From assembly GCA_964502175.1 (NCBI GenBank), contig CAZCVE010000014.1:24969-88968 (forward strand): 64,000 nt of DNA, in the 5' to 3' direction. The DNA comes from an uncultured Sandaracinaceae bacterium. Its GTDB lineage: Bacteria > Myxococcota_A > Polyangia > Polyangiales > Sandaracinaceae. A program made the position numbers and the translations under genes. Positions 8,156 to 34,532 of this stretch are shown in pieces. Below the pieces are notes generated by a model that saw nothing but the letters and a program-made list of their open reading frames with translations, searched no databases and was not told the DNA's origin. Position 1 is the stretch's first letter. Every line of letters begins with the position of its first letter.

Positions 8156-8341
8156 GTGGTGGCTCTCTTGGGTGGAGGCGCGCCCGGCAGACCGAGAGTA
8201 GCGCGTGCGGCTTGGAACGTACGACGAACGCAGGTCATTTCGCGCCCGGGAGGCCCGAAACGGCAAGAATGCTTCTGCGTGCGTCTGACGAGTGCGTGAA
8301 GAACCGTGTGCGGGAGCGGTCACCGTGCGGTCTTGCCGCGA

Positions 8342-8748: not shown

Positions 8749-8760
8749 CGATGCTCTCGC

Positions 8761-8988
8761 TCAGAGGTCGTCGGTCGACTCGGAGTCGATGGCCACGAAG
8801 TAGCCCTTCTCCGGACACGCTCGGAGCCAGGCGACGATGCCGGCGCCGCGTCGTTCCACGCGCGTCAGCCGGTACTCGCCTCTCTCGACGCGCACGACCT
8901 CGAACTCGTCGCCCGGCACGATGCCGTCTTGTTCGCGAAGCGTCGCGGGCAGGATGACCTGCCCCTTCGTCGAGAGGGTGGTGCGCAT
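8761..8988 (-). CDS. vapB: AbrB/SpoVT-type antitoxin VapB
   Basis: 75 aa; N-terminal swapped-hairpin motif (LSTKGQVILPATLRE); immediately upstream of vapC. Confidence 0.75.
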   Translation of the reverse strand: MRTTLSTKGQVILPATLREQDGIVPGDEFEVVRVERGEYRLTRVERRGAGIVAWLRACPEKGYFVAIDSESTDDL

Positions 8989-9065
8989 GGACGTAAGATG
9001 GCGTCTTACCTACGCAGGGGCAATGCGCTCCAACGGCTCGTCACTGCGTGCTATGCGTGGCCACC

Positions 9066-10112: not shown

Positions 10113-10113
10113 C

Positions 10114-10971: not shown

Positions 10972-11024
10972 GGGGGACGCGGGTGGAGAGCCAAGGTCGT
11001 TCAGCCTTCTACGTCGAAGCTCGC

Positions 11025-11744: not shown

Positions 11745-11750
11745 TCGCGC

Positions 11751-12578: not shown

Positions 12579-12699
12579 GCGCGGAGCCTACCAAGCCGGA
12601 GCCGCCTGGGTGTCCGTCCATCGGGACGAAGCGCGCGATTGCGGACGCGACCGAACGGCTCTGTTACAAAGGAAAGCTCGCACCTCGGAGGGAGTGTTC

Positions 12700-13173
12700 A
12701 TGACGAGTCAGTCGGGATCGTTCGCTGCGCATCGGCTCTGGGTCACCATCCTCGGGGTCGCCACCGTCCTCTCGATCGCAGCGCTCGCAGGCGCCTGCGG
12801 ACCCGGAGGCAACCCCGACGCAGCGCCGCCCGCCGACGCCGTGGCGCCAGCAGACTGCTCGAGCGGAGACGCGATGGCCGGACGCGTGGCCGTGGGCATG
12901 CGCGCGTGCTCGAGCTGTCACAGCGCGGATCTCGGCGGCGCCACGACGGGCACGCCCGGTCCGAACCTCACCTCGACGAACCTCGGCACCTGGACCGATC
13001 AGCAGATCACGAGCGCGATCCTCGACGGTCAGGGCACGGGCGGCGAGCCGCTCTGCTCGGCGATGACGCGCTTTCGCATCGCGCGCATGACGGGCACCGA
13101 GGTGTGCAACATCGTGGCGCACCTGCGCTCGCTCGCCCCGATCACGCGCGACGTCGCCGACACCTGCATGTGA
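12700..13173 (+). CDS. c-type cytochrome lipoprotein (mono-haem)
   Basis: SD GGAGGGAG about 8 nt upstream of ATG 12700. Signal and lipobox LAGACG. CSSCH haem motif. Confidence 0.7.
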   Translation: MTSQSGSFAAHRLWVTILGVATVLSIAALAGACGPGGNPDAAPPADAVAPADCSSGDAMAGRVAVGMRACSSCHSADLGGATTGTPGPNLTSTNLGTWTDQQITSAILDGQGTGGEPLCSAMTRFRIARMTGTEVCNIVAHLRSLAPITRDVADTCM

Positions 13174-13208
13174 CGCTCCGCCGAGGCGCATCGCGCTAGG
13201 ATCGCCCG

Positions 13209-15818
13209 ATGCGCGCCACATCCTCCTCGTTGCTGGAAAGCTCGTCGGTGGCCTTGCTCTCGGCGGGGCTGCTCTCGGCGGGGCTGCTCTCGGCCTGCGC
13301 GTGCGGTGAGCCGGTGCGCGAGGTCGATGCCGGCCTCGGCGAAGACGCTCGCGTCGACGCTGGCGGCGTGGACGCGGGGCCCCCACCCGACGCGGGGAAT
13401 TGTCGACGCTCGATCGGTGATTTCCCCGCACCGATCCCGGGGGTCTGCGCGCCGCGTACCGTCGACCCGCTCGCGACCTTGCCGGTAGGAAGCGAGGACA
13501 CCGATCAATTCATCGTGCCAGGCGGTGAACGCCTCGTGCGCGTGGGGCGCAACGTCGAGGTCGGTGGGTTCCCGATGCGCTTGGTCGAGGTGCCGGGCAC
13601 CGAGCTCGTCATCGTCACCGACGGAGGCCTGCGTGAGGAGTCGCTCGCCGTCGTGGACCTCGCGTCGATGACGCTGCGCGACGAGGCCGTGTTCACGCCC
13701 GCGACGGGCTCGTTGTTCTGGGGCCTCGTGGTCACCGGCGCGGGCGCGACGCGTCGCGTGTGGGCCTCGGGCGGAGGGGGCGACGAGATCCTCGCGTACG
13801 ACCTCGACGTCGCGAGCGGCACGCTCACCGAGATCGCCGCCGACCGCATCGCGCTCACCGGCGCCACGAACGGCTACGTCGCTGGGCTCGCGATCCACGG
13901 CAGCACTCTCGTCGCCGCGCTCCTTCGCGAGCAAGCGATCGCGGTGTTCGACGCGGCGAGCGGCGTGGAGCTGCGGCGCATCTCCACCGAGCGCGCTGAC
14001 TTCCCCTACGACGTGGTGCTGAGCGCCGATGGCGCGCGCGCCTACGTGTCCCTGTGGGGCGCCTCGGCGGTCGCGTTCGTCGATGTCGCGAGCGGCGCCA
14101 TCGAGGCGCGCATCACGGTCGGCAAGAACCCGGAGGGCCTGGCGCTCTCCGCTGATGGTCGGCACCTCGCGGTCGCGTGCGCCGACAGCGACAGCGTCGT
14201 CGTGATCGACACCACGACGCGCACCGTCGCGAGCACCTTCTACCTCGACGCCGAGGAGGCCGACCGCGGCTCGGCCCCCGCTTCGCTTCGCTTCTCGAGC
14301 GACGGCGCGCGCCTCTTCGTGGTGAGCGCGCTCGACAACGCCATCGACGTGCTCGACGTGAGCGGGGCGATGCTGTCGCGCCTCGGCCGGATCCCGACGC
14401 TCTGGCACCCGACCGACGTCCTGCCGCGCGCCGACGGAAGCGTCGCGTTCCTCAACGGTCGTCATCTCGGCACGGGCGCCAACACGAACCCCTCCGAGGA
14501 CGACATCACCGAGCTCCTCGGCGGCTCGCTCAGTCTGATCGACGTGCCCCCCACCGATGCCGAGCTCCGCGACTGGGAGATCGAGATCGCGACCAACAAC
14601 ACGCGGATGAGCCGCTTCGTCGACGTCGCATGCCCGGCGGGCGCGGACTACGACTTCCCCGTCCCGCGCTCCGGCGAGGGCGCGTCCACACGCATCCGCC
14701 ACGTCGTCGTGATCGTCCGCGAGAACAAGACCTACGACGCGTACATGGGCGACTTCCCAGGCGCCAACGGTGATCCGACACTGACCCTCTTGCCCGCGGC
14801 CGACATCGAGAGCGTGATTCCGAACACCTACGCACTGGCAGGTACGTTCGGCCTGGCCGACAACTACTACTCTCACGCCGAGCAGTCGATCCAGGGCCAC
14901 GTGTGGGCGACGCTGGGTCGCACGACGGACTTCGTGGAGCGCTCGTGGCTGACCACGTGGGGTCGCGGCCATTGGTCCGTACCCCCTCAGGCGACCACGT
15001 CGATCGGCTATCCGGAAGAGGGCAGTGGGTTCGACTACCTCGACGAGAACGACATCTCCATCTCGAACTACGGCGAGATCGTCGGATCCCGCAACGCTCC
15101 GCCTCGTCGGGGCTATCCCGGTCTGTTCTACAGCTACGAGCCCGAGGTCGACAAAGCCGACTTCGTCGCGGGCCAGATCCATGCGTGTGACATGCGCTCG
15201 TTCACGTTCGTCGTGATGCCCAACGACCACACGCAAGGCACCTCGCCGGGCGAGCCGACGCCACGCTCGATGATCGCCGACAACGACGAGGGCGTCGGTC
15301 GTCTGATCGACGCGATCAGCCACTCTTCCTTCTGGCCCGAGACCGCCGTCTTCGTGTTCTGGGACGACCCGCAGGACGGCGGCGATCACGTCGACAACCA
15401 CCGCTCTCCGCTGCTCGTCGTCTCGCCCTGGGCCCGTCGACGGCACGTGAGCCACGTGCACGTGAGCGAGGCGTCCGTGTGGCGCACGATCCAGCTCATC
15501 TTCGGCCTCGACGCACCGCACAGCCGTGAGTGGCTCGACGCTGCGCCGCTCTACGACTTCTTCACCTCCACGCCGGACTACACGCCCTACGACCACGTGC
15601 CGCGTACGTTCCCGCAGGAGCTCAACCCGGACCGGCGCACCCGAGATGCGATGATGTCGATGGCCTACGACTGGTCACTCCCTGACAACCAGCCTGGGCT
15701 CTCGCGGCTCCTGTGGCGACACTTCCACGACGGCGCTGAGGCCCCATGGGTCGAGCGTGATGCCGACGAAGCGATCGACGAGGCCGCGGCAGAGTCCGAG
15801 GGCCGCGATCCGCGTTGA
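13209..15818 (+). CDS. lipoprotein: N-terminal beta-propeller (lactonase-like repeats) fused to a phosphoesterase-family domain (PLC/AcpA-like)
   Basis: Lipobox LLSACACG. Repeated SADG/YVS propeller blades. C-terminal region with the IRHVVVIVRENKTYD phosphoesterase-family signature. Confidence 0.7.
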   Translation: MRATSSSLLESSSVALLSAGLLSAGLLSACACGEPVREVDAGLGEDARVDAGGVDAGPPPDAGNCRRSIGDFPAPIPGVCAPRTVDPLATLPVGSEDTDQFIVPGGERLVRVGRNVEVGGFPMRLVEVPGTELVIVTDGGLREESLAVVDLASMTLRDEAVFTPATGSLFWGLVVTGAGATRRVWASGGGGDEILAYDLDVASGTLTEIAADRIALTGATNGYVAGLAIHGSTLVAALLREQAIAVFDAASGVELRRISTERADFPYDVVLSADGARAYVSLWGASAVAFVDVASGAIEARITVGKNPEGLALSADGRHLAVACADSDSVVVIDTTTRTVASTFYLDAEEADRGSAPASLRFSSDGARLFVVSALDNAIDVLDVSGAMLSRLGRIPTLWHPTDVLPRADGSVAFLNGRHLGTGANTNPSEDDITELLGGSLSLIDVPPTDAELRDWEIEIATNNTRMSRFVDVACPAGADYDFPVPRSGEGASTRIRHVVVIVRENKTYDAYMGDFPGANGDPTLTLLPAADIESVIPNTYALAGTFGLADNYYSHAEQSIQGHVWATLGRTTDFVERSWLTTWGRGHWSVPPQATTSIGYPEEGSGFDYLDENDISISNYGEIVGSRNAPPRRGYPGLFYSYEPEVDKADFVAGQIHACDMRSFTFVVMPNDHTQGTSPGEPTPRSMIADNDEGVGRLIDAISHSSFWPETAVFVFWDDPQDGGDHVDNHRSPLLVVSPWARRRHVSHVHVSEASVWRTIQLIFGLDAPHSREWLDAAPLYDFFTSTPDYTPYDHVPRTFPQELNPDRRTRDAMMSMAYDWSLPDNQPGLSRLLWRHFHDGAEAPWVERDADEAIDEAAAESEGRDPR

Positions 15819-22790: not shown

Positions 22791-22916
22791 CCGAGTGCGC
22801 GTGGTACGCGCGCTAGCCCGTCTTCCCTTCGGCGCGCCTGTCGTGGGTGACGAGGACTTCGGCAGCCAGAGAAACCATCGTGACCGACTGACGCTGGTCT
22901 GAAGTTCTGCGAGGAT

Positions 22917-24143
22917 GTGACCGTGTGGGCGAAGGCCAGACCTTGGTGGATCGCGGTGCTCGCAGGCTACGGGCTCTGCGTGAGCGCTCCGTTCATGTTT
23001 CTGTTCGGCGTTCCGGTGCTTTGGTTGCCGTGGCTCCTTCGCCGCATCTCCGACCATCGAGAGCCCGTCACCGAGGGATTTCGTGAGGTGGTCACGCGCG
23101 CTGCGCTCGTTCTGCCTGCGTGGGCGTTCCATCTCGCTTCGAGCCATGTCGCGCTGGTCTTCGCACGACAGGCGGGCCTGGCACCGTCGGGCCTCATTCC
23201 ATTCGCAGTGGGCGTCCTGGCCGGGCCTTTCGTGCTTCCGTGGTTCGGGGCCACCGGCTTGATGAAGTTGCCCATCGCTGACGGGGTCTCGCGGTCGTTC
23301 GATGCCTGGGACACGCGCGGCGCTCGCGACTGGATGCTGCACGGTCTGCTCGTCGGGCTCCTTCTCTCCTGGCCCTATGGTGTCTTCTCGCTCGGCGACG
23401 GCGTCGCCCTGCCATCGGGCATGCTGTCGCCCGGCGTGGAAGTCCTGCTCCTTCTTCTCGGAGTGTCCTGTGTGCCAGCGGCCGTGGGTATCGCCCTACG
23501 GTACGCAGCGGTGTCGACCCGGACCCCGCCCCGCGAAGTCATGGGGTCCGGTACGGGCACTCTCGTGGCTGCGCTCGGCGTCCTCGCCTCGGCAGCCTGG
23601 GTCGTCACCCTCGCGATCCTGTCGACCCCACGACTCTCGCGGCCAGCGCCGATATTGGCGTCCACGCTCGTCACCGTGATGCTCGCGCCGTTGGCGGCGT
23701 GGATCGTGTTGGCGATCATCACAGTCCTGCGTCGGCCGAAGGGGAGGCCGTTGGAACGCAGACCGGCGATCCTGCAAGGGACCCTCGTGGTTCGCGGCAT
23801 GACGGTTCTCGCGCGCGAGACCGTGGTGCTCCAGCTGGAGGATGGCTCTTCCATCGCGCTCGCCGAGGGCGAGTCGGTTGCCGCGGGCTACTTCCTCGTC
23901 GACACGCTGCCGTCGGGTTCATCCATCGAGCTGTGGGTCGAACCGGGCATGTCCGAGGTCGCGTTCCGCAGCGCGACGGCGCGCAGCGCCATCGTTGGAC
24001 TGCATCCACCGAGCCCGCGAGTCGCGACGCCTGTCTCTCGCGTTCCCTCCCCCTGGTTGCCCGCGCAGCACGCCGTCATGCTGATCACCTGCGCGTGGAT
24101 CTGGTCGCAAGTCTGGTTGTTCGAGAACATCGGAGCTCGGTGA
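22917..24143 (+). CDS. hypothetical polytopic membrane protein
   Basis: Multiple hydrophobic helices; no motif. Its 3' end overlaps by about 58 nt the convergent minus-strand gene ending at 24085. Confidence 0.45.
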   Translation: MTVWAKARPWWIAVLAGYGLCVSAPFMFLFGVPVLWLPWLLRRISDHREPVTEGFREVVTRAALVLPAWAFHLASSHVALVFARQAGLAPSGLIPFAVGVLAGPFVLPWFGATGLMKLPIADGVSRSFDAWDTRGARDWMLHGLLVGLLLSWPYGVFSLGDGVALPSGMLSPGVEVLLLLLGVSCVPAAVGIALRYAAVSTRTPPREVMGSGTGTLVAALGVLASAAWVVTLAILSTPRLSRPAPILASTLVTVMLAPLAAWIVLAIITVLRRPKGRPLERRPAILQGTLVVRGMTVLARETVVLQLEDGSSIALAEGESVAAGYFLVDTLPSGSSIELWVEPGMSEVAFRSATARSAIVGLHPPSPRVATPVSRVPSPWLPAQHAVMLITCAWIWSQVWLFENIGAR

Positions 24144-24675
24144 TCCCCCGCGATGTCGCGTTGGCTGCGCGACGACGCGTCACCGCCGCTGTCGCCAGCG
24201 TCGCACCGAGGAGGAGGACGGCGAGCGGGACGGAGGGTCTGCCGTGTGACGCGGAGCAGCCGAGGAGCGGCGGCTCGTACGGATGCGCCGTCCATCGACG
24301 CGCGGTGGGGTCCCACGCTTGGGTGGTGACGGTGGGCTCGCACTGTCGTCGCGTCGCGCACGTGCCTTCCGTGCACGCGCCGCCTGCGCCGCAGAGGCCG
24401 ATCGGCACGTCGCGCATGGCCGAGTCGTCGGCGAGCCGGCCACCGCTCGGGCTCACCTCGCGGGGTGCCCAGCACTCCGCGATCTCGCGACACGCCGCGC
24501 GCGCGCCGCACTGTACGTCGGCCCTGCACGCGCGCGGCACGCAGACCTCGGAGTGCCCGGAGATCGCGACGTCGAGGCCCGGCGGACAGTCCCCCTCGAC
24601 CGGCATGATCGCATCGGCGCGCGCGAGCGTCGGGACAACCATGCCGAGCGCGAGGACGAGAAAGAGTCGAGTCAT
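24085..24675 (-). CDS. secreted Cys-containing hypothetical protein with C-terminal hydrophobic anchor (last gene of the flotillin/ATPase operon)
   Basis: Start MTRLFLVLALGMVVPTLARA (signal peptide) at the complement of 24673-24675. Multiple Cys. C-terminal hydrophobic stretch LAVLLLGATLATAAV. Confidence 0.45.
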   Translation of the reverse strand: MTRLFLVLALGMVVPTLARADAIMPVEGDCPPGLDVAISGHSEVCVPRACRADVQCGARAACREIAECWAPREVSPSGGRLADDSAMRDVPIGLCGAGGACTEGTCATRRQCEPTVTTQAWDPTARRWTAHPYEPPLLGCSASHGRPSVPLAVLLLGATLATAAVTRRRAANATSRGITELRCSRTTRLATRSTRR

Positions 24676-24721
24676 GGTCGAGAGGCTAATCGGTGTTCGC
24701 CGTCCATGCGCGCCCCAGTCG

Positions 24722-25546
24722 TCAGCGCGCCACCAACTCGGCACCGGTTCGTTCGAGCGTGAGCGTCGAGAGTCGCCGCACGCGCAGCGGTCCGACCGTC
24801 TCGTCCGTGAAAGCCTCGGCGACCACGCGGTATCGCGTGGGAAGATGGAGCGCGGCGAGCTGGTGGAAGAGCGGCACGCGGACCCGGCCGCGGGGCGGGA
24901 TGAGCACCGGGTCCGGCAGCCAGTAACCGTGACCCGGCCAGCCGACGACCTGGGGTGGGATCCAGCCGCCTGCATACCAACTCTCCAGTTGGGCCGTCGC
25001 GCTGATCGCCGCACGACGTCGATTGACGAGAAATAGGCCCTGCGGTTGTCCGGGGAGGATGGCCAGGCCGTCACGCGGCGCCTCGAGCTCCAGGCGAAGT
25101 CCCGTCGTGGGACCATGGAGGACGAGGCGCGGATCGCCCACCGCGGTGCTCGCATCGATGGCCTGCTCCCGTCCGTCGAACGCCACGCGCGCGTGCCACG
25201 ACCATTCCTGACAGCGGAGCTCGACGTCGTGCGTGCCGCGTGGCCACGCGCCTCGAACGCTGCATTGGGCTCGAGGTCCACTGCACGAGGCGAGTGGCCG
25301 ACTCTCGGTGCCGACTCGCAGTGTGAGCACTGCAGCCTCGTACTCCTCCGGCCCAACGGAGCGCCTTGACGGCGGCGGCTCGCAGTACCGCGGGTTCCTC
25401 CGCGGGCCGCGGATCGGGTCCTCGGCTTCTGACTGCGCGTGTGAACGGGGAGCGGGATCGACGAGCCCCGCGAGGGTCGCGAGGAGGAACGCCGCGAATG
25501 GAACGGTCGATCGCACGCGTCTGGGACACTCCGACCGCGCGGCCAT
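24722..25546 (-). CDS. secreted hypothetical protein (translationally coupled to the giant ATPase)
   Basis: ATG (complement of 25544-25546) lies 7 nt after the ATPase stop (25554-25556). Signal peptide VPFAAFLLATLAGLV...AQS. Confidence 0.5.
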   Translation of the reverse strand: MAARSECPRRVRSTVPFAAFLLATLAGLVDPAPRSHAQSEAEDPIRGPRRNPRYCEPPPSRRSVGPEEYEAAVLTLRVGTESRPLASCSGPRAQCSVRGAWPRGTHDVELRCQEWSWHARVAFDGREQAIDASTAVGDPRLVLHGPTTGLRLELEAPRDGLAILPGQPQGLFLVNRRRAAISATAQLESWYAGGWIPPQVVGWPGHGYWLPDPVLIPPRGRVRVPLFHQLAALHLPTRYRVVAEAFTDETVGPLRVRRLSTLTLERTGAELVAR

Positions 25547-25553
25547 TGGGTGG

Positions 25554-28500
25554 TCAGCCGCGGAGGCGGAGGTCGATCTTCTTCAGGAGATCCAAGAGCT
25601 GGATCATGTGCTCGTGGAGGGAGTGTGCGTCTTCGAGGTTCTTCGCGGCGCTCTGGACGAGCGGGACGAGCGTCTGCTCCGTCAGCGCGACTTGGTGCGA
25701 GAGCATCTCTGCGTAGCCGCGCGGCGGCTCGACGGTGACGTTCACCTCGGGCTTGCCCAGGCCCGAGAGTGAGCGATTGAGCTCCGCGAGGCTCTCGGCC
25801 AGCCACGGCGGTGCGTTCTTGTCGCGGCCGTCCGTGAGCGCCGCGCGCGTGACTTCGCCCTGTAGCTTCGCCGTCTCGGAGAGCGCGAGGATCATGTCCT
25901 TGCGGTCCTTCTCGGCGACGTCGGCGCGCGACACCGCTTGGGCCAGCGCGACCTTGATCTCGTCGAGGTTCTGGCCGAGCACGCTCAAGGTGCCAGTGAC
26001 CCGCGCGACCGGATCGTCGTCGCCCGAGCCCATGGTCTTGCGGCGCTTGAACTCGGCCTTGATCTCCGCCCAGCGCGTCTTCTGCACGTCGCTCATCCGC
26101 TGACGAAGGTCTGCGAGCTTGAGCAGGTTCTGCTCGCCACCGACCGTGAGCGTCTGCGACTCACCGCGGTAGTGATCGTCGATCAGCCGCTCGAGCTCGT
26201 CGTCGTTCATGGCGGCGACGACCTTGCCGGCCATCTTCGTCATGTTTCGATAGCTGCCTTGCAGCTTGAACGGCGGCTCCGTGCGATAGGCGTCTTCCTG
26301 ACTGGCGCTCAGGATGTACTCGGCGTTCACCTTCAGGAGCACGTCGCGCACGCGGAAGAGACGCTGGAGCACGGTCGTGATCTCGGAGAGCTCGGCGCCC
26401 GAATAGCCGTGCTCGAGCTCCGTCGTCGCGATCTGCTCGCCCATCGCGATGCGCAGGATCTTGTCGACGTCCTTGGCGCTCCGCGTCGCGAGCGGCGACA
26501 GCACCGAGTTCGAGGTCAGGCAGTTCTCGACGTAGCTGAGCGCGAACGCGTCGATCTTGCCCTCGAGCACCTCACCCAGGTTGTAGGTGTCGGCGCGGTT
26601 CGCGAGCATGTCGGGGATGCGGAACTTCTCACCCGTCTCGGTGTACGGATTGCCCGCCATCACGACGCAGAACTTCTTGCCGCGCAGGTCGTACGTGCGC
26701 GTCTTTCCGTTCCAGATGCCCTCCATCCTGCGCTGCGCGTCGCACATCGAGATGAACTGCTGGAGCAGCTCCGAGCTCGTGTGCTGGATGTCGTCGAGAT
26801 AGAGCATCACGTTGTTGCCCATCTCGAGCGCGAGGTTGATCTTCTCGACCTCTTGGCGTGACGTCGCGTTGGGCGCTTGTGCGGGATCGACCGAGCGCAC
26901 CTCGTGACCGAGGGAAGGTCCGTTGACCTTCACGAAGACGAGGCCCAGGCGATTGGCCACGTACTCCATGAGCGTCGTCTTGCCGTAGCCGGGCGGCGAC
27001 ACGAGCAAGAGAAGACCCATCGTGTCGGTGCGCTTGCCCTCGCCGAGCGCGCCGAGCTGCTTGCTCAGGTTGTCACCGACCATCGGCAGGTAGACCTGAT
27101 CGACGAGCCGATTGCGCACGAACGAGGCCATCGGCTTGGCCTTGAGCTCGTCGAGGCGCAGGCGCTTTCGCTCGCGCTCGAGGATCGTGTGGCGCAGCTC
27201 GCGGTACGCGCGGAAGCCCGGCACGTGGTGCGTGCGGTACGCGAAGAGCCGTGAGAGCAGCTCGTCGAGGCGCAGCCCGAGCTTTCGATCCGTGATGCGC
27301 GGGTGCTGACCGAAGAGCTCGCGCACCTCGGCTTGAACGAGCGCGTGCACCACCTCGCGGTCGAGCTTGCGATCCGTCGCGACGAGCACGCTCGCCTCGA
27401 GCTCCGCGTGCGCGAGCTCCGGAGAGCGCTGGGCGACGCCGCGCATCCAGGCGCGCACGAGCGCGAGGCGCGCGCGCGCATCGCCCTCGAGGGCGCGGAG
27501 GTCGTCGTCGAACGCGCGGCGCGCGCCGGAGACGTCGAGGTGCGCCTTGAGCGCCTCGGCGAGCTGCTCGGCAGACGCGCTCGTCGCGAAGCGCACGGGC
27601 TCCTTGGCGAGCTCTTCGACGAGGTACGCGGCGGCGACGCGCGCGTCGGCGACGTCGGCGGGGATCTCGAGCGCTTCGGCGTTCTTGGTGATCGCGATCG
27701 CCAGCTCGTCCGCGAGCTGCGAGAGACCCGACGCGTCGGACGTCGTCGCGCGCAGACGCCCGAGGCTCGCCGCGCGCCGCGCGAGCAGCGTCTTGGTCGA
27801 CGCCTCGAGCAGGCCACTGCCCGCAGGTGATCCCGAAGCTGCGAAGCCGAACGCCCAGAACGCGCACGCGATGGCGCGAGGCGTCGCCGCGAAGCGCAGG
27901 AGCCCGGCAGACGCGCGGAGCGTGAGGACCTGCCCGAGGATCTTCACCGCGTCCGCGTCGTGGACGCCGCGGTCGTAGCCCTCGTCGTAGCGGGGCTGCG
28001 CGTAGCTGCGCACGAGCTCGAGGAAGGCAGCCTCTTCGCGCTGCGCCTCCGTGAGCTTCGCGATCGTGAGGCCGCTCTTGCCCTCTTCGGCGTCGAACAA
28101 GATCGAGGCCGCGAGGTACTCGCCTCGGTAGACGTCCTGGGTCTCGCTCACGAGCGACTGCGTCCAGTACGGCTTGGCGGCCCGGAGCGCGGGATCGTCG
28201 ATCGGCTCGAAGAAGTCGGTGCCCGTGAGGTGCAGCGCGAGCGTCGTCTCCGCGTCGTCACCCACGGTACGGGGCACGATCGTGATCTCGAGCGGCTGGT
28301 TGTTGACCGAGAACTTGTGACGCCCGAGGCGGACGACGCTGTCGCCCTCTTCGAAGAGATCGAGCTTGTCGCGGAGCGCGCGGAGGGCGTTGCTGCGCGC
28401 AGCCTTGCCCTTGCCATCGACCTCGTCCGCGCGGACCGTGTCGCCGATGCCGCGGAGCTGCTCTGCGATCTGGCGGAGCTTGCTGACCATCGCGTCCGAC

Positions 28501-30893
28501 GCGAAGTAGGCGTTGAGCTCGTCTTCGGTCTTGAACGTGCGCGAGCGACGGCCGACGCCTTCGAGGATGCGCTCGGCCGCCGACGTGAGCGACTGCGCGC
28601 GCTTCTGACGTTCTTCGAGGAGCTGCTGCTTCTTCGCGCCGAGGGCGTCCGAGATCTCCTCGCGCTTCTTGGCGAGCTCGAGCACGAACTCGTCGAGCTC
28701 GCCGAACTTGGCCTCGATCTCTTCGAGCGACACGAGCAGCCGCGCGAGCTCGGCGTCGCACTTCTCGGGGCTGTCGGCCACGGCGAGCGAGCTGCTCACG
28801 CTCTGCCCGAGCAGCTTCATCTGCGCGCCGAACGACGCGCGACCCTCGATCGCCGCGAGCTCGCGTCGTCGCGCCTCGAGCACGGCGCGCACGCGGTTCT
28901 GCTTCGCGAAGACGTCGCCGATGTTCTCGAGGATGCGGGCGCGCTGCACCGGATCGTCCACCTCGAGGCCGCCCACGACCTCCGAGAGCACCGTGAGCCC
29001 TGCGCCGACGCGCTCGAGCTCTTCGTGGAGCGGGCGCGCGTCGACGGTCTTCTCGACCTTCGTGATGCCCTGATCGATCTCGTCGAGCTTCTGCGAGACG
29101 GGCACGAGCGCCTCGGCGCCCGAGAGGAACGCCACGCAGGCCACGGAGACCTTCTCTTGATCGGCGATCGTCGCCTTCTCGAGCGCGTCGACCGCGGCGA
29201 GATCGACGTAGCGGATCTCGCGCACGCTCACGAGCTGCCCGCGCTGCCCGCGCAGCGACGTGAGCGCGCCCATGAAGTCGTCGACCGAGCGCATGTCCTC
29301 GGGACGCGTCTTGCGCACGAGCTCGTCGCGCGCCTTCTTCGCCGACTCGAGCGCGTCCGTCGCGCGCTTCTTCATCGCGAGGACCTTCTCGAGCTCGTCG
29401 ATCACGAGCTCGGCGGTCTTCTTCACCTCGAAGATGGCGCTCTTGAGGTCGAACGCGTCTTTGCTGCCGACCCAGTGGTACGCGTCCGAGACGCGCTCCG
29501 CGTTCTTGACGATCTCTTCGTAGGTCGAGCGAACGAGCTCGGCCTTCTGCGCCATCTTCGCGATCGAGTACGTGTCGGAGATGCCGCGCACGAGCTCGGC
29601 GTTGCCGACCTTCGAGAGGAACGAGCCGTCCGTCTCGGCCTCGGCGGCGTGCTCGGCCGACGTGTACGGCGTGCGCCAGATCTGCACCGGATGGATGCGC
29701 GACGGCTCTTCGGACGCGGAGCGAAAGACCACCAGCGTGCCGTCGTTGAAGAGCGACATGCCGTGGCAGACGATCGGCGTGGCGACCTCTTTGCGGATCA
29801 GGTTGTACGAGAGCAGCTGATAGAGGCCCTGATCGCGGCGGTGGTAGACGAACAGCACGTCTTCGCCGTTCGGAGACTTGATGACGCGAAAGAGCTCGAG
29901 ACCCTCGACGTGCTTGTCGAAGACCTTTCCTTCGCCGACGTCGAGGTAGTAGCCGCCGGGGAACACGATGCCGTGGTCCTCGGGCAGCTGACGACAGCTC
30001 TGGCCGATCGCGTCGATGCGCAGCACCTCTTTGGTGCGGCGGTTGAAGACCAGGTAGCGAGTCTTGGTCTCGCGGTAGGGCTTCATCGACAGGAGGATCA
30101 AGCCGCCCACGACGGCGTACTTGATCTCCGCGTCGTCGAGGGCTTGGTTCGGATCCTCGACCTGCTCGGCGTAGATGCCTTGTCCGGTCTCGGTGTTGTC
30201 CTCGATCTTGATGGTCAGATCGCCGTGGATCGTCTCGACGAAGAGCTCGTCTTCGATCGACACGTGCGGATGCCGACCCGTGCGCTGCTGATCGCGGCCG
30301 ACGACCTTCCACTCGAAGTCGAACGGGCTCGGAAAGACGTGATCGCGGTCGCCGCGCTCGTCGAGGTAGGCGACCTGACCGGCGGCGTCGACGCTCCACC
30401 GGAGCACGCGCTGATCACCGAGGGTCGCGCCCGTCTGGAAGATCGCGAGGATGCGATCGCTCTCGACGCGGACCTGGAGGAGCTTGGTCTCCTTGTAGTA
30501 CCGGAAGAGATCCCCGAACTCCTTGAGGAAGCGCGGATCGTCGAGGAAGCCGGGGATCGTGGTGCGCGGGACCTCGGAGAGATCCCACGCGCCGTCGTCC
30601 GTCTTCACGAAGCGGTGGAGCGACAGGACGTCGTGGACCTGGGTCTCCGCGCGCAGGCCGAGGAAGACCTTGTAGCCCATGACCAGCGTGCCTCGGAACG
30701 ACACGAGGTCGCGCGGCACGCAGTTGTTCTCCGTGCGCACGCGCTCGTTCGCGACGATCGCGAGCTCCGAGCCGCCAAACGTCTTCTTGCGCGCCTCGTC
30801 GAGGAGACCCGTGCGCTCGACGAGCGCCTTCGCCTGCTCGTCGAGACGACGGCGAAGGATCTCGTAGTTGCCCTGATCGATCTGCTCAGCCAC
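25554..30893 (-). CDS. giant (1779 aa) AAA+ ATPase with extended coiled-coil regions (MoxR/McrB-like AAA motifs)
   Basis: Walker A LLLVSPPGYGKTTLMEYV, Walker B MLYLDDIQH, sensor-1 CVVMAGNPYTE. Long Glu/Arg/Ala-rich helical segments. GTG start (complement of 30891-30893) 6 nt after the flotillin stop. Confidence 0.8.
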   Translation of the reverse strand: MAEQIDQGNYEILRRRLDEQAKALVERTGLLDEARKKTFGGSELAIVANERVRTENNCVPRDLVSFRGTLVMGYKVFLGLRAETQVHDVLSLHRFVKTDDGAWDLSEVPRTTIPGFLDDPRFLKEFGDLFRYYKETKLLQVRVESDRILAIFQTGATLGDQRVLRWSVDAAGQVAYLDERGDRDHVFPSPFDFEWKVVGRDQQRTGRHPHVSIEDELFVETIHGDLTIKIEDNTETGQGIYAEQVEDPNQALDDAEIKYAVVGGLILLSMKPYRETKTRYLVFNRRTKEVLRIDAIGQSCRQLPEDHGIVFPGGYYLDVGEGKVFDKHVEGLELFRVIKSPNGEDVLFVYHRRDQGLYQLLSYNLIRKEVATPIVCHGMSLFNDGTLVVFRSASEEPSRIHPVQIWRTPYTSAEHAAEAETDGSFLSKVGNAELVRGISDTYSIAKMAQKAELVRSTYEEIVKNAERVSDAYHWVGSKDAFDLKSAIFEVKKTAELVIDELEKVLAMKKRATDALESAKKARDELVRKTRPEDMRSVDDFMGALTSLRGQRGQLVSVREIRYVDLAAVDALEKATIADQEKVSVACVAFLSGAEALVPVSQKLDEIDQGITKVEKTVDARPLHEELERVGAGLTVLSEVVGGLEVDDPVQRARILENIGDVFAKQNRVRAVLEARRRELAAIEGRASFGAQMKLLGQSVSSSLAVADSPEKCDAELARLLVSLEEIEAKFGELDEFVLELAKKREEISDALGAKKQQLLEERQKRAQSLTSAAERILEGVGRRSRTFKTEDELNAYFASDAMVSKLRQIAEQLRGIGDTVRADEVDGKGKAARSNALRALRDKLDLFEEGDSVVRLGRHKFSVNNQPLEITIVPRTVGDDAETTLALHLTGTDFFEPIDDPALRAAKPYWTQSLVSETQDVYRGEYLAASILFDAEEGKSGLTIAKLTEAQREEAAFLELVRSYAQPRYDEGYDRGVHDADAVKILGQVLTLRASAGLLRFAATPRAIACAFWAFGFAASGSPAGSGLLEASTKTLLARRAASLGRLRATTSDASGLSQLADELAIAITKNAEALEIPADVADARVAAAYLVEELAKEPVRFATSASAEQLAEALKAHLDVSGARRAFDDDLRALEGDARARLALVRAWMRGVAQRSPELAHAELEASVLVATDRKLDREVVHALVQAEVRELFGQHPRITDRKLGLRLDELLSRLFAYRTHHVPGFRAYRELRHTILERERKRLRLDELKAKPMASFVRNRLVDQVYLPMVGDNLSKQLGALGEGKRTDTMGLLLLVSPPGYGKTTLMEYVANRLGLVFVKVNGPSLGHEVRSVDPAQAPNATSRQEVEKINLALEMGNNVMLYLDDIQHTSSELLQQFISMCDAQRRMEGIWNGKTRTYDLRGKKFCVVMAGNPYTETGEKFRIPDMLANRADTYNLGEVLEGKIDAFALSYVENCLTSNSVLSPLATRSAKDVDKILRIAMGEQIATTELEHGYSGAELSEITTVLQRLFRVRDVLLKVNAEYILSASQEDAYRTEPPFKLQGSYRNMTKMAGKVVAAMNDDELERLIDDHYRGESQTLTVGGEQNLLKLADLRQRMSDVQKTRWAEIKAEFKRRKTMGSGDDDPVARVTGTLSVLGQNLDEIKVALAQAVSRADVAEKDRKDMILALSETAKLQGEVTRAALTDGRDKNAPPWLAESLAELNRSLSGLGKPEVNVTVEPPRGYAEMLSHQVALTEQTLVPLVQSAAKNLEDAHSLHEHMIQLLDLLKKIDLRLRG

Positions 30894-30899
30894 CGCGGC

Positions 30900-33101
30900 T
30901 CAGAGCCCCAGCTTCTTCGCCTGGGTGAGCAGCGCCTCGAGGCGCGACTTGGTGCTCGCGTCGCCCGCGTCGGCCGAGAGCTTCGCGAGGAACGCGCTCA
31001 CGCTGAGGTTCTTCAGCGCTTCGCTGTCGAGCTTGGGGTTCTTGAGGATCTCGGTGAGATCCTCGGGGAGGCTGCGGTTGTTCTGGAGGTAGTCCGCGAG
31101 CACCGTCTTGATGGTCTGGCTGTTGTCGACGGTGGCGTCGATCGCCTGACCCATCGTGAGGGCGCTGGCGAAGCGCTCGAAGAACTGACCGTCGCCGCCG
31201 ACGATCTGGATCTTCGCGTTGCCCATCGCGGTGGCCATGACCTCGGCCTGGGCCTTCGCGATCTCCTTCTTCACCTCGATGCCAGCGAGCTCCACGGCCT
31301 TCTCCTTGTCGAGGCGGAGGCGGAACTCTTCGTGCTCGCGGCCGACGCCGTCGAGCGCCTTCATGGCGTTGGCCTTCTGCGCGAGACCCGCCGCCTCGGC
31401 TTCGAGCTTCTGCTGGATCGCGCCGGCCTCGGCCTCGCCGCGCTTGGCGATGGCGAGCGCCTCGGCCTCTCGCACGCGGGCGAGCGCGAGACCCTTCTGC
31501 TCCTCGCCCTGCACCTCGATGGTCGTGCGCTCGCGGATCACGGCGGCCTCGGCGAGGCCTGCCTTGCCCTGCGCCTCGCCGCGCTTCTCGAGGACCTTGG
31601 CCTCGGCCATGCCCTTGTTCTCGAGGCCGGTCGCCTCGGCCGTCATCTTCTTCTCGATGACGAGCGCCTCGGCCATGCCCTGCTTCTCGATCGCGGCGGC
31701 CTGCGCCTCGCGAACGCGCACCTCGGCGAGGCCCGCGGCCGCGTGCTCGGCCTGGACGCCCTCGGCGACGCGCATCTTCGCGCGCGCCTGCTTGTCGGCG
31801 GTCTCGAGGTCCGCGTCGGCGATGGTCACGCGCCGCTTGGCTTCGTGACGCGCCACGGCCTCGTCGGCTTCGGCCTTCTTCACGATGCGCACGGCGGCCT
31901 CCTCGGCCGACGCGCTCGCCGTGATGACGACCGCTTCCTTCTGGCGCTTGGCCTCCGCGACGAGGCGGAGATCCTTGATGCGCTCCTCTTCCTCCGCGAC
32001 GGTCTTGTCGACCGCGATGCGCGCGCGCACCACGTCGGCGATGTCCTTCTTCTGGACCTCGACTTCCTTCTCCTTCGCGATCGAGCCGAGGCTGACCTCG
32101 CGCTCGCGCACGATCTGCTCGAGGGCTCGCGCCTTCTCGACGCGCTCGGTCTCGACGGCGATCTCGCGCTCGCGGCCCTTCTGGGCGATCGCGGCGCCGC
32201 GCTCCTTGTTCTGCTGCGCGACGAGGATCTCCTCTTCGTACTTGGCGCGGAGGACCTGCGTCTTCTTCGCCTCTTCGTCCGAGATGCGCTGCGCCTCTTG
32301 CTGCTCGCGGGCCTGCGACGACGTGATCTCCTTGTTGGTCTTGGCCTCGACCTCGGCGCGGCGCTGGTTGAACGCGAACATCGCCTCGTCGCCCTTGAGC
32401 GTCTGGCTGCCGATGTCCATGCGCTCCTTCTGACGGAGCTCGTTCGTCATCACGTTCTGCACGGTCGTGATGTCGGTGATCTTCTTGATGCCCTGCGCGT
32501 CGAGGATGTTCTGCGCGTCCATGAGCTCGAGCGGCGTCTGCTCGAGGTAGTCGATGGCCACGTCGTCGAGGACGAAGCCGTTGAGGTCACGGCCGATGAC
32601 CTCCTTGATCTGATCGCGGAAGACCTCGCGCTTCTTGTAGAGGTCCTCGAAGTCGAGCTGCTTGCCGACGGTCTTGAGCGCTTCCGAGAACTTGGCGGTG
32701 AAGAGGTGCTCGATCGTCTTCTGGTCGGAGGCGCGTGCGGCGCCGATGGACTGCGCGACCTTGAGCACGTCCTCCACCGTCTTGTTCACGCGGACGAAGA
32801 ACGTGACCTTGATGTCCGCGCGGATGTTGTCGGCGCAGATGAGGCCTTCCTTCCCTCGGCGATCGATCTCGATGGTCTTCACCGAGATGTCCATGATCTC
32901 GGCGCGGTTGATGATGGGCCACACCGTGAACCCGGTGAACGTCACGTGCGGCTCGCCGCCTCCGAGCCCGGCGCCCGTCTTGATCAGGGCCCGACCCTGA
33001 TCGACCAAGCGGTAGAAGCGCGCGAGCATCGCGAGGAAGCCCAAGACGAGCACCACTGCGGCTAGGACGACGCCCACGATCATCAGCTGGTTCGACGACA
33101 T
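30900..33101 (-). CDS. flotillin-like protein (SPFH/band-7 domain with long EA-rich coiled coil)
   Basis: N-terminal TM helix and SPFH domain (ISVKTIEIDRRGKEGLICADNIRADIKVTFFVRV). Long AEA/EAQ repeat helical region typical of flotillins. SD GGGAGGA upstream of ATG. Confidence 0.85.
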   Translation of the reverse strand: MSSNQLMIVGVVLAAVVLVLGFLAMLARFYRLVDQGRALIKTGAGLGGGEPHVTFTGFTVWPIINRAEIMDISVKTIEIDRRGKEGLICADNIRADIKVTFFVRVNKTVEDVLKVAQSIGAARASDQKTIEHLFTAKFSEALKTVGKQLDFEDLYKKREVFRDQIKEVIGRDLNGFVLDDVAIDYLEQTPLELMDAQNILDAQGIKKITDITTVQNVMTNELRQKERMDIGSQTLKGDEAMFAFNQRRAEVEAKTNKEITSSQAREQQEAQRISDEEAKKTQVLRAKYEEEILVAQQNKERGAAIAQKGREREIAVETERVEKARALEQIVREREVSLGSIAKEKEVEVQKKDIADVVRARIAVDKTVAEEEERIKDLRLVAEAKRQKEAVVITASASAEEAAVRIVKKAEADEAVARHEAKRRVTIADADLETADKQARAKMRVAEGVQAEHAAAGLAEVRVREAQAAAIEKQGMAEALVIEKKMTAEATGLENKGMAEAKVLEKRGEAQGKAGLAEAAVIRERTTIEVQGEEQKGLALARVREAEALAIAKRGEAEAGAIQQKLEAEAAGLAQKANAMKALDGVGREHEEFRLRLDKEKAVELAGIEVKKEIAKAQAEVMATAMGNAKIQIVGGDGQFFERFASALTMGQAIDATVDNSQTIKTVLADYLQNNRSLPEDLTEILKNPKLDSEALKNLSVSAFLAKLSADAGDASTKSRLEALLTQAKKLGL

Positions 33102-33265
33102 GATCCTCCCTCTGCCTCGTGTGAACGAGGCTACGAGCGCCGCGGATCCAATCAGACCCGCGCGGTGTTGTCACCGCCGCTCTCTCCTCCGTGCCGTGCC
33201 GAAAACGAGCGAGGACCGTCGACATTCCCTCGGGGTTGTGAAGGGCCCCGGAAGGAACCGATGGA

Positions 33266-33988
33266 TCAGGTCCGCTTTCCCGAGGCCTTCTCGGATCCCT
33301 TGCGTTTCTGGGCGCTCTCGTCGATCGTGCTCATCGGCTCGACCTCGAAGCTCTCCGTCTTCGCGTCCCAGCCGAGGATGAGCGCCTCGTCGTCTCGTGC
33401 GAGCGCGTCCGGATCGGCGCACCGCACCTGGAGCTGAAGGCCCGCTGCGCCGTCGTCGAGGTGACCCTCGCCGAACCTGCCGTCGACGCGTCCCGTCGTG
33501 ATGCGCACGACCTTGCCGACGAGATCCTTGTGCTTGGTTCCTTGCTTCGTCGCGAACAAAGGAGCGAGCGGACGGACGGCCGCGCTCGTCGCGAGGAGGC
33601 TCGTGGCGAACGACGCGATGAAGACGAGCGCGCTGATCGCGATCGCAGGGAGCGGGACGACCGGGCCGACATTCTTTGCGAGCACGTAGCTGACGATCCA
33701 TCCGAACAGACTCAGGAACGAGAGGGACACCGTGACGGGCACGCTGCGCAGCTTGAGGGCCGAGAGGAGGGACGAGAGCACGCCCTCCTTGGCGGCGGCC
33801 CCGTCGGCGAGACCGTCGTGCCCGACATCGTGCGCGTGACCGGCGTCGCCGACGTGGGCGTGGCCGACGTCCGCCATCACCTTGCCCTCTGCGCCGCCGA
33901 GGACGTCGACGTCGAGCGCGCCCAGGATCACGGTGAGCCAGTACACGACGGATGCGATGACCAGGCAGGTCCACGGCAGCGTCGGCAT
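33266..33988 (-). CDS. NfeD-like membrane protein (OB-fold C-terminus)
   Basis: N-terminal TM helices. C-terminal NfeD beta-barrel (GKVVRITTGRVDGRFGEGHLDDGAAGLQLQVRC). Start ATG at the complement of 33986-33988, or GTG about 34021. Sits upstream of the flotillin gene in the canonical nfeD-flotillin arrangement. Confidence 0.7.
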   Translation of the reverse strand: MPTLPWTCLVIASVVYWLTVILGALDVDVLGGAEGKVMADVGHAHVGDAGHAHDVGHDGLADGAAAKEGVLSSLLSALKLRSVPVTVSLSFLSLFGWIVSYVLAKNVGPVVPLPAIAISALVFIASFATSLLATSAAVRPLAPLFATKQGTKHKDLVGKVVRITTGRVDGRFGEGHLDDGAAGLQLQVRCADPDALARDDEALILGWDAKTESFEVEPMSTIDESAQKRKGSEKASGKRT

Positions 33989-34121
33989 CGAGAAGACGAT
34001 GGAGAGGAGCTCGTCCACGGGTGCAGTCTGCCAGACACCGCGGTGATCCGTTCGATTCCGCGCGCGTGATCGTGAGCCTTGGCCTCGGCGCACGGTCCCG
34101 GCTACCGTTCCGGTCTCGCGG

Positions 34122-34532
34122 GTGGATGCGCACGACGACAGCACGGCCGGCAAGCCCGGCTCTCCGAAGAAGGACGACGCGGCCCACGAGCCCCGCGTGA
34201 GGATCGTCTTCGTCGAAGATCTCGCGCCGCTCCGGCGGCTCGTGGTCTCCGCGCTCGCCTACGAAGGCATCGACGTGCGCGGCGCGGGGACGCTCTCCGA
34301 GGGGCTCGCCGCGGTCGTCGCGGGGGACCTCGACGTGCTCGTGACCGACCACTGCTTGCCCGACGGAACGGGGCGCGAGCTCGTCGAGCACGCGCGTCGG
34401 GTGAAGCCGGGGCTCAAGACGATGTGCGTGTCGGGCTCGCCGCAGCGCGACCCGATCTTCGATCGCGTCATCGAGAAGCCGTTCGACGTCGAGGTGCTCG
34501 CGGCCGAGATCCGCGCGCTCGCGCGGCGCTGA
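34122..34532 (+). CDS. stand-alone response-regulator receiver domain (CheY-like)
   Basis: REC motifs: RIVFVEDLAPLRRLV, phospho-acceptor D in LDVLVTDHCLPDGTG, and conserved Lys region. The true start may be internal. Confidence 0.75.
   Translation: MDAHDDSTAGKPGSPKKDDAAHEPRVRIVFVEDLAPLRRLVVSALAYEGIDVRGAGTLSEGLAAVVAGDLDVLVTDHCLPDGTGRELVEHARRVKPGLKTMCVSGSPQRDPIFDRVIEKPFDVEVLAAEIRALARR

Follow-up and report, generated by a model that had tools for sequence, protein, structure and literature searches.

A flotillin–YqiJ–AAA+ ATPase locus in an uncultured Sandaracinaceae bacterium, a probable PspA-less copy of an envelope-stress module

The window, which is the whole 64-kb stretch of Sandaracinaceae DNA that was analyzed, contains five ORFs of interest on the minus strand and a divergent response-regulator gene on the plus strand. 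All five ORFs proposed in the initial annotation exist, as seen from their coordinates and translations, and so does the CheY-like receiver gene at 34122. The NfeD-like gene is present as proposed; only its start had been placed incorrectly, at 34021. The genes and domains are as follows.

33266..34018, minus strand: YqiJ/YuaF-type (short NfeD, BacC-like) membrane protein, 250 aa, GTG start at 34018
30900..33101, minus strand: flotillin-type SPFH protein (YqiK/BacD/PaFlo3-like), 733 aa
25554..30893, minus strand: giant AAA+ ATPase (BacE/PA3728-like), 1779 aa, GTG start, predicted cytoplasmic
29475..30824, minus strand: DUF3686 domain of the ATPase (aa 24-473), modelled as a long N-terminal helix and, after it, a beta-propeller-like domain
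28860..29114, minus strand: DUF7902 segment of the ATPase (aa 594-678; Pfam PF25472, E=6e-25)
26544..27035, minus strand: AAA+ alpha/beta core of the ATPase (aa ~1287-1450) with Walker A, Walker B, sensor-1 and Arg1433
24722..25546, minus strand: Sec1, 274 aa, with an N-terminal hydrophobic segment
24085..24675, minus strand: Sec2, 196 aa, Cys-rich
34122..34532, plus strand: stand-alone response-regulator receiver (CheY-like), divergent (Pfam Response_reg, E=3.4e-9)

The flotillin stop lies 6 nt from the GTG start of the ATPase gene, the ATPase stop lies 7 nt from the ATG of Sec1, and a 164-nt gap separates the YqiJ-like gene from the flotillin gene. GC3 values of 0.89-0.94 give a strong coding signal in the YqiJ-like, flotillin and ATPase genes; the signal is weaker in Sec1 (0.77) and Sec2 (0.82).

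The most upstream gene of the series encodes a protein of the YqiJ/short-NfeD type, so its first description as NfeD-like was apt. Its family profile aligned with E. coli YqiJ at 93.8% (hhalign, E=1.8e-7), with the C-terminal region included in the alignment. Pfam YqiJ_N was matched at E=0.002, and Pfam NfeD was not matched. TM segments were predicted at ~13-42, 92-114 and 116-149, together with a variable loop rich in His and Asp and a putative OB-like domain at the C-terminus. The 733-aa protein had likewise been recognized correctly as a flotillin-type SPFH protein, since the family profile aligned with E. coli YqiK with 99.9% probability (hhalign, E=2.9e-32, 414 columns). Its N-terminal TM segment (1-34) is followed by an SPFH domain and then by a long coiled coil rich in Ala and Glu; the C-terminal part is flotillin-like. 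The NCBIfam FloT model scored 21.5 bits (E=1e-4) against a cut-off of 700, Pfam gave no match even at E=10, Band_7 included, and a profile search against PDB sequences found nothing. Several of its homologues match PF01145, and the JGI name for homologues is 'YqiK'.

The giant ATPase matched Pfam DUF3686 (E=6.9e-193), DUF7902, AAA and AAA_5. Residues ~480-850, which follow the propeller and hold the DUF7902 segment, appear in our reading to form a helical region. In total, ~800 aa of helical and mixed domains lie between the propeller and the AAA+ module, and the protein ends in a helical tail. The motifs PPGYGKTT, YLDDIQH and VVMAGNP picked out earlier were confirmed in the sequence. Their key residues are invariant in 83 of 83 homologous sequences; these are Walker A (GYGKTT, 1302-1307), Walker B (DD, 1367-1368) and sensor-1 (N1415, preceded by a beta-hairpin), and Arg1433 is likewise invariant. 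Structure comparison of the modelled AAA+ module gave the dynein, midasin and MoxR class (AAA_5 members) as the closest folds, and the AAA+ modules of ClpA, ClpB and Lon were also among its structural neighbours. The module thus has the Walker A, Walker B, sensor-1 and Arg-finger residues of the AAA_5 class as well as its fold. Judged from the sequence, the catalytic residues are intact and belong to a MoxR/dynein-class AAA+ module. A RuvB or DNA-repair identity was considered and rejected, the RuvB models scoring 18-20 bits against cut-offs of 282-299 and covering the P-loop only. No convincing TM segment was seen in the hydrophobicity of the 1779 residues. With one N-terminal TM segment in the flotillin and none in the ATPase, the SPFH domain and the ATPase are both predicted to be cytoplasmic.

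More than 5860 homologues of the ATPase were retrieved, and the DUF3686 ATPase occurs in at least 559 species among GTDB representative genomes. The association with flotillin and the NfeD-like gene claimed for this locus extends across phyla, where ATPase orthologues are almost always linked to flotillin and YqiJ-like genes. Among 80 informative loci of other species, ~75 carry the complete cassette. The flotillin gene lies immediately upstream of the ATPase gene in 78 of 82 loci, and the YqiJ-like gene immediately upstream of the flotillin gene in 74 of ~79 (hmmsearch). One locus (L058) has the ATPase without a flotillin gene, and a second (L010) has four envelope-protein genes between the flotillin and ATPase genes. 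With plasmid records included, the trio is distributed in Myxococcota, Actinomycetota, Gammaproteobacteria, Planctomycetota, Bacteroidota and Deinococcota; plasmid-borne copies are found in Streptomyces, Deinococcus, Hymenobacter and Pseudomonas. The distance matrices of flotillin and ATPase correlate with r=0.91, a value reached in 0 of 999 permutations. The three genes are passed on together in at least six phyla.

Other neighbours are less constant. MoxR-class ATPases usually act with VWA partners; no VWA gene and no further conserved neighbour were found among the called neighbours of the surveyed loci. CesT/Tir (DUF2170) and PspA genes lie directly upstream of the module in 16-19 gammaproteobacterial loci and in Hymenobacter. 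No PspA gene was found within 10 kb in the non-gammaproteobacterial loci, Hymenobacter excepted. In the window and the survey combined, the motor's constant partner is the flotillin–YqiJ pair rather than PspA.

Sec1 has no Pfam or NCBIfam match, and its sole homologue, at 38% identity, is encoded in L085, 1.5 kb downstream of the ATPase gene. Sec2 contains 12 Cys and has hydrophobic segments at 4-24 (signal-like) and 147-167 (TM), the latter being C-terminal and followed by an Arg-rich tail. It has no family match in Pfam or NCBIfam, and a homologue with 68% identity is found directly after the ATPase gene in L084 only. These homologues come from two close Sandaracinaceae relatives, at different positions in a variable stretch between the ATPase gene and a LysR–DoxX pair. 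Homologues of the receiver occupy the equivalent position in the same two loci only. Because they are found solely in close Sandaracinaceae relatives, Sec1, Sec2 and the receiver are placed outside the conserved module. The five genes had been proposed as one operon with secreted partners 'hard-wired' to the motor; only the YqiJ-like, flotillin and ATPase genes are conserved together, and Sec1 and Sec2 are lineage-specific.

The initial annotation considered such a module to be undescribed. The same trio has in fact been reported by comparative genomics within phage-shock-type membrane stress systems, in many cases with CesT/Tir–PspA and a phospholipase D gene added (Ravi et al., 2024; PMC11237479). 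That study mentions PspA-less 'abbreviated operons' in one sentence and proposes a chaperone-like role in assembling membrane complexes for this operon type (PMC11237479). Orthologues are also present in the P. aeruginosa operon bacABCDEF (PA3732–PA3727), with the order DUF2170–PspA–213 aa–688 aa–DUF3686 AAA–PLD. The Pfam architecture of its ATPase, PA3728, matches that of the window ATPase. The ATPases of two surveyed loci, L049 and L063, are 45-47% identical to the window ATPase; the BacA/BacB/BacF homologues of these loci are 62-75% identical to those of P. aeruginosa, and the L063 ATPase shares 84% identity with P. aeruginosa protein P0250. The window shares with these systems the YqiK-type flotillin, the 3-TM YqiJ-like protein and the DUF3686 AAA+ ATPase. 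Unlike the full operon, it has neither the CesT/Tir (DUF2170)–PspA dyad nor the phospholipase D gene: PspA and DUF2170 gave no match anywhere in the 64-kb window, and BacF/PLD gave none either. Lacking a CesT/Tir–PspA match, the window fits only the abbreviated form. The locus is very probably a member of the described flotillin–YqiJ–AAA+ envelope-stress module.

The bacABCDEF operon is induced by stress and by phage. Its genes are co-transcribed, with a σ54-type promoter motif, and a bacA mutant shows a 6- to 13-fold increase of all downstream products of the operon (PMC10948618). Phage infection upregulates PA3728-PA3732 (PMC12041424). Deletion of paFlo3, the P. aeruginosa flotillin orthologue, reduced biofilm by ~20% and gave no stress phenotype in the conditions tested (PMC13086221).

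The explanation that we favor as a whole, with a probability of roughly 0.6, is that the locus is a PspA-less copy of the envelope-stress module, in which a flotillin/YqiJ scaffold is combined with a remodelling AAA+ motor. By analogy with the solved SPFH assemblies HflK/C, flotillin and QmcA-YbbJ, the flotillin and YqiJ-like proteins would assemble into a large ring or cage at the inner membrane, on its cytoplasmic side. The ATPase would form a hexamer via its AAA+ module and dock there, with its propeller heads and coiled-coil arms making the contact. ATP hydrolysis might then drive remodelling, disassembly or recycling of the flotillin assembly or of a client held there; at loci with a PspA gene, this client may be the ESCRT-III-like PspA polymer. 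Stressed membrane would in this way be maintained or repaired. This specific remodelling mechanism is offered tentatively, at somewhat less than even odds. The earlier suggestion of a membrane-microdomain-anchored remodelling or stress machine agrees with the evidence. Counted for our explanation are the domain identities, the conserved linkage of the trio, the invariant catalytic residues, the PspA genes beside extended copies, the expression of the P. aeruginosa operon, the predicted cytoplasmic location of SPFH domain and ATPase, and the earlier description with its similar functional proposal (PMC11237479). Counted against it are the paFlo3 deletion result, the loci L058 and L010, the missing VWA partner and the absence of PspA from the window and, Hymenobacter aside, from the surroundings of the non-gammaproteobacterial loci.

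A bolder extension, which we regard as possible if rather doubtful, is that the DUF3686 AAA+ protein is a bacterial functional counterpart of Vps4, an ATP-driven motor for the disassembly and recycling of sub-membrane polymer scaffolds. Given that flotillin and YqiJ accompany it invariably, the motor would then have the flotillin cage as its obligate substrate or platform; in lineages with extended operons it would have PspA (ESCRT-III) polymers as a second, optional client. According to a 2025 review, bacteria appear to lack a Vps4-like regulator of PspA (PMC7619361).

The pairing of SPFH and AAA+ proteins is conserved, and the locus could also be read as an HflK/C–FtsH-like pair without the protease, in which the flotillin cage corrals damaged or misassembled membrane proteins or complexes and the motor extracts or unfolds them. 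The motor would then not act on flotillin or the PspA polymer itself. The propeller may be a client-binding module, ClpA, ClpB and Lon are among the structural neighbours, and the chaperone-like role in membrane complex assembly proposed by Ravi et al. (PMC11237479) points the same way. However, the surveyed loci have no conserved protease, VWA or other partner that would handle clients, and the nearest folds, dynein, midasin and MoxR, remodel complexes and are not classical unfoldases; we consider this reading unlikely. We judge it quite improbable that the locus serves anti-phage defence of the abortive-infection type, sensing infection at the membrane with phospholipase D/HKD, where present, as the effector. 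The phage induction of PA3728-PA3732 (PMC12041424), the patchy, HGT-like distribution in Pseudomonas (PMC13086221), the presence of the module on megaplasmids, and a PLD/HKD gene after the ATPase gene in ~9 gammaproteobacterial loci are consistent with such a role. The defence role raised in the initial annotation found little echo in a PADLOC-DB 2.0 scan of the ATPase, flotillin and Sec1, which returned only a weak LmuB coiled-coil match (E=4.8e-4) and no match for flotillin or Sec1. The family also evolves slowly, with 41-62% identity across phyla and only 246 clusters at 50% identity. So slow an evolution is unusual for defence genes. In addition, one cluster holds 3222 P. aeruginosa sequences, suggesting a common chromosomal gene, no defence genes flank the module, and the window copy has no effector-like gene.

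The large protein is named 'DNA repair ATPase' or 'ATPase involved in DNA repair' by NCBI and Pfam, and weak RuvB matches (NCBIfam 20 bits, Foldseek E ~4e-6) go with these names. That it is a DNA-repair ATPase whose linkage to membrane proteins is incidental is nevertheless hardly credible, as Pfam revealed no DNA-binding or nuclease domain in the ATPase. The name has spread over thousands of database entries, and we flag it here as a label for which no experimental support was found.

Roles in organizing and repairing membranes are ascribed to bacterial flotillins and to PspA/ESCRT-III proteins. To our knowledge, no energy-consuming factor is known in bacteria for remodelling flotillin or PspA/ESCRT-III assemblies. 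In at least six phyla, the cassette pairs a flotillin with an AAA+ motor that is very large, highly conserved and predicted to be catalytically intact. With its occurrence across these phyla and in P. aeruginosa, which is genetically easy, it is a good starting point for experiments. What the window adds is modest, namely the PspA-less core form in Myxococcota.

Several known systems resemble the module in part. E. coli YqiJ–YqiK and B. subtilis YuaF–FloT, described as SPFH2/NfeD2 pairs (Hinderhofer 2009, PMC2636767), likewise consist of a short NfeD-like gene followed by a flotillin-type SPFH gene. These pairs are without the ATPase gene (E. coli locus inspected), and the window flotillin is longer than YqiK (733 aa vs 553 aa) and too divergent for Pfam Band_7. 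The MoxR family members NorQ, CbbQ and RavA have ~300-500 aa and VWA-domain partners, whereas the window AAA+ module lies inside a 1779-aa protein with no VWA gene nearby. [quoted passage not shown] Functional coupling of an SPFH scaffold to a hexameric AAA+ machine is known from HflK/C–FtsH and prohibitin–m-AAA protease (PMC13086221). FtsH is a membrane-embedded AAA+ protease of the classical clade, whereas the window motor is predicted to be soluble, belongs to the MoxR/dynein class without a protease domain and, according to the model, would carry propeller-tipped arms.

The genes considered here lie in a window of ~70% G+C.

Genes at the locus (window coordinates, strand, description)
22917-24143, plus strand, 408-aa membrane protein
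24085-24675, minus strand, Sec2 (196 aa, 12 Cys), one of two ORFs downstream of the ATPase gene
24722-25546, minus strand, Sec1 (274 aa), the other of these two ORFs
25554-30893, minus strand, ATPase gene (1779 aa, GTG start)
30900-33101, minus strand, flotillin-like gene (733 aa)
33266-34018, minus strand, YqiJ-like gene (250 aa, GTG start)
34122-34532, plus strand, divergent ORF encoding a response-regulator receiver

The spacings reported in the initial annotation hold, with 6 nt from the flotillin stop to the ATPase start and 7 nt from the ATPase stop to the Sec1 ATG, as does the divergent CheY-like receiver at 34122. The first gene is present as described, but its start is at 34018 and not at 34021. 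The gap between the YqiJ-like and flotillin genes is 164 nt. The third-position G+C (GC3) is 0.89-0.94 for the YqiJ-like, flotillin and ATPase genes, and is lower in Sec1 (0.77) and Sec2 (0.82). A scan of 23800-34300 for σ70 promoters and terminators returned nothing beyond chance, and inspection by eye revealed no σ54 -24/-12 motif upstream of the YqiJ-like gene.

The 733-aa flotillin-like protein has no Pfam match even at E=10, and PDB sequence searches with the single sequence or a profile also returned no match. A 16-sequence profile of the family, however, matches E. coli YqiK with 99.9% probability (E=2.9e-32). This alignment, 414 columns long with 28% identity, takes in the coiled coil as well as the SPFH domain and the TM segment. 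Homologues carry the JGI name 'YqiK', and PF01145 is found in several of them. The YqiJ-like protein has three hydrophobic segments and a weak Pfam match to YqiJ_N (E=0.002), and comparing the profile of its family with E. coli YqiJ gives 93.8% probability (E=1.8e-7). The first two genes, previously called NfeD-like and flotillin, are therefore a divergent YqiJ–YqiK pair, corresponding to NfeD2–SPFH2 as Hinderhofer et al. 2009 (PMC2636767) use these names. The TM1–TM2 loop of the YqiJ-like protein (window 33800-33900, aa ~40-75) is very variable in length and His/Asp-rich, reading HAHVGDAGHAHDVGHD in the window and DVDVDVDV or GHGAHDGHD in others (alignment columns 40-115). This composition is suggestive of a loop that binds metal or acts as a charged sensor.

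Pfam places AAA and AAA_5 at aa 1295-1418 of the ATPase, in agreement with the AAA+ core recognized initially. Two further domains, which had gone unmentioned, are DUF3686 (PF12458, 'ATPase involved in DNA repair') at aa 24-473 (E=6.9e-193) and DUF7902 at aa 594-678. The protein is identical to an NCBI entry, the closest named relatives of which are annotated as Sandaracinaceae (Myxococcota), and homologues are named 'DNA repair ATPase' or 'MoxR-like ATPase' in databases. In a structure model of aa 850-1779 (pLDDT 82.9), a small beta domain is followed by a helical domain of ~300 residues and the AAA+ alpha/beta core. In the predicted core a beta-hairpin precedes sensor 1, and a lid and a low-confidence helical tail follow. 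The catalytic residues are intact: none of the 83 homologues deviates in Walker A (PPGYGKTT), Walker B (DD), the sensor-1 Asn or the NRAD arginine. A PDB sequence search returned AAA matches at the P-loop level only. No convincing TM segment was found in the ATPase. The ATPase and the SPFH domain of the flotillin are both cytoplasmic.

When one genome was scanned for each GTDB species, relatives of the ATPase turned up in at least 559 species; the 80 loci retrieved belong to Myxococcota, Actinomycetota, Gammaproteobacteria and Planctomycetota. The initial annotation had raised the possibility of ATPase orthologues unlinked to the flotillin and NfeD genes. Instead, the ATPase near-obligately adjoins this pair, and the linkage is strongly non-random. 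A flotillin-like gene (41-62% identity) lies directly upstream of the ATPase gene in 78 of 82 loci, and in 74 of ~79 the flotillin gene is in turn preceded by a YqiJ-like gene. Two of the four loci without a directly upstream flotillin gene are contig ends, one (L010) carries an insertion and one (L058) has no flotillin nearby. Plasmids from Streptomyces, Deinococcus, Hymenobacter (Bacteroidota) and Pseudomonas fluorescens also carry annotated copies of the trio. Pairwise distance matrices of flotillin and ATPase are correlated (r=0.91; 0 of 999 permutations as high), which partly reflects shared phylogeny yet is compatible with inheritance as a unit. The tight flotillin–ATPase coupling is not conserved, since the spacer of 6 nt in the window (30894-30899) is 203 nt in the close Sandaracinaceae relative L084 (9798-10000; ATPase 93% identical) and ~50-250 nt in most other loci.

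Several individual loci deserve mention. In L010 (Myxococcales MAG), four same-strand envelope or exported-protein genes lie between the flotillin and ATPase genes (3924-9856), encoding an OmpA family protein with thrombospondin repeats, a DUF11 protein, a Laminin_G_3 protein and a CopD-like membrane protein. L058 (Labilithrix sp. MAG, 6391-10031) holds the sole clear DUF3686 ATPase without an adjoining flotillin/YqiJ pair; the genes upstream encode instead an AraC regulator and an aldehyde dehydrogenase. The flotillin-like gene of L049 (Pseudomonas sp. EA_35y_Pfl2_R111, 7433-9499) is interrupted by an in-frame stop inside its tblastn match, the mark of a possible pseudogene or assembly error. 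The contig of L007, labelled 'uncultured Clostridia bacterium', carries the full trio with 52-55% identity to the window proteins, a closeness typical of loci from Myxococcota and other Gram-negatives, so its bin assignment may be wrong.

Homologues of Sec1 and Sec2 occur only in two close Sandaracinaceae relatives, L084 and L085, at differing positions. They lie in a variable stretch (0.8-2.75 kb) between the ATPase gene and a conserved LysR–DoxX pair.

Stretch from the ATPase gene to the LysR–DoxX pair
Window, 22800-25553, 2.75 kb
L084, 15341-16127, 0.8 kb
L085, 15368-17594, 2.2 kb

Homologues of Sec1, Sec2 and the 408-aa membrane protein are present, absent or reordered in this hypervariable stretch among the close Sandaracinaceae. 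The receiver gene is likewise conserved in those two relatives only. The lower GC3 and the lineage-restricted, shifting homologues rule out Sec1 and Sec2 as module components. A neighbour search of the loci returned no further gene conserved across phyla beside the trio, only lineage-specific synteny and, in Gammaproteobacteria, a DUF2170/PspA pair. The unit is therefore three genes, not the five-gene operon with hard-wired secreted partners that had been proposed. Sec2 itself is Cys-rich, with an N-terminal signal-like segment and a C-terminal hydrophobic segment followed by an Arg-rich tail (…GCSASHGRPSVPLAVLLLGATLATAAVTRRR…), and matched no NCBIfam or Pfam model. The arrangement resembles myxobacterial C-terminal sorting tags.

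DUF2170 (YjfI, CesT/Tir-like) and PspA/IM30 genes lie directly upstream of the trio in 16-19 gammaproteobacterial loci, ~9 of which also have a phospholipase D (PLD) gene downstream of the ATPase gene. On the P. fluorescens SBW25 megaplasmid pQBR103 (980-14184), the trio comes last in an array of ten same-strand genes, which encode YjfI, PspA, a rhomboid protease, DUF2491, DUF350, DUF1190, a glutathionylspermidine-synthase-like protein, the YqiJ-like protein, SPFH and the ATPase. Here the trio is joined to a full yjfIJKLMC-like PspA/polyamine operon, which links the module to this operon class. The Hymenobacter plasmid carries 'chaperone Tir'–PspA followed by the trio. No PspA gene was found in the 64-kb window, nor within 10 kb of the trio in loci from Myxococcota, Actinomycetota, Planctomycetota and Deinococcota. 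Linkage of the trio to PspA and PLD is facultative.

Judging by analogy from HflK/C, flotillin and QmcA–YbbJ, whose assemblies have been solved (cited in PMC13086221), the YqiJ-like protein and the flotillin would together build a membrane-anchored ring or cage. The ATPase would hexamerise, dock on this scaffold through its propeller and arms, and use ATP hydrolysis to remodel or recycle either the assembled flotillin or a client, for instance PspA polymers. This mechanism as a whole is tentative. A protease-less extraction machine resembling HflK/C–FtsH is an unlikely alternative to such remodelling. The defence role suggested initially is less probable again, as the ATPase, flotillin and Sec1 have no PADLOC defence-system match, the module proteins evolve slowly and none of the neighbourhoods is a defence island. 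That the protein truly is a DNA-repair ATPase, as the family name implies, is very improbable and was rejected: RuvB scores 20 bits where the cut-off is 282. The names 'ATPase involved in DNA repair' (Pfam PF12458) and 'DNA repair ATPase' (NCBI product name) have been propagated to thousands of proteins. A full-text literature search found no publication backing them, and the surrounding genes point towards the membrane. The search also returned nothing relevant on DUF3686, on a flotillin–DNA repair ATPase or on an SPFH–AAA+ anti-phage link, and neither biochemical nor structural work on the ATPase was found in the literature. The module would gain in significance if the ATPase proves to be a motor that remodels flotillin or PspA. 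According to a 2025 review (PMC7619361), bacteria still appear to lack a Vps4-like regulator of PspA.

The genes and their linkage thus stand as initially annotated, while the five-gene extent and the undescribed status do not. The trio has been described in silico, and the orthologous P. aeruginosa operon has been partly studied. Ravi et al. 2024 (PMC11237479) described an operon class of CesT/Tir–PspA with three further genes, with a PLD gene in some Proteobacteria; they also noted 'abbreviated operons' that lack PspA, and the window cassette is of this form. P. aeruginosa bacABCDEF (PA3732-PA3727) is confirmed as the extended form by the gene context of its ATPase, P0250 (1746 aa, 3222 member sequences): DUF2170, PspA_IM30, a 213-aa protein, a 688-aa protein, DUF3686-AAA and PLDc_2, then yaeQ, recJ and an M4 peptidase. 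The six bac genes are co-transcribed with a promoter motif of σ54 type, BacB-F accumulate 6- to 13-fold in a bacA mutant, and bacA and bacB have biofilm, rhamnolipid and virulence phenotypes (PMC10948618). Phage infection upregulates PA3728-PA3732 (PMC12041424), and deletion of the flotillin gene paFlo3 lowers biofilm by only ~20% (PMC13086221). Whereas bacABCDEF has DUF2170, PspA and PLD, the window copy is without PspA, and we assign a probability of about 0.9 to its being an abbreviated-form member of this described module.
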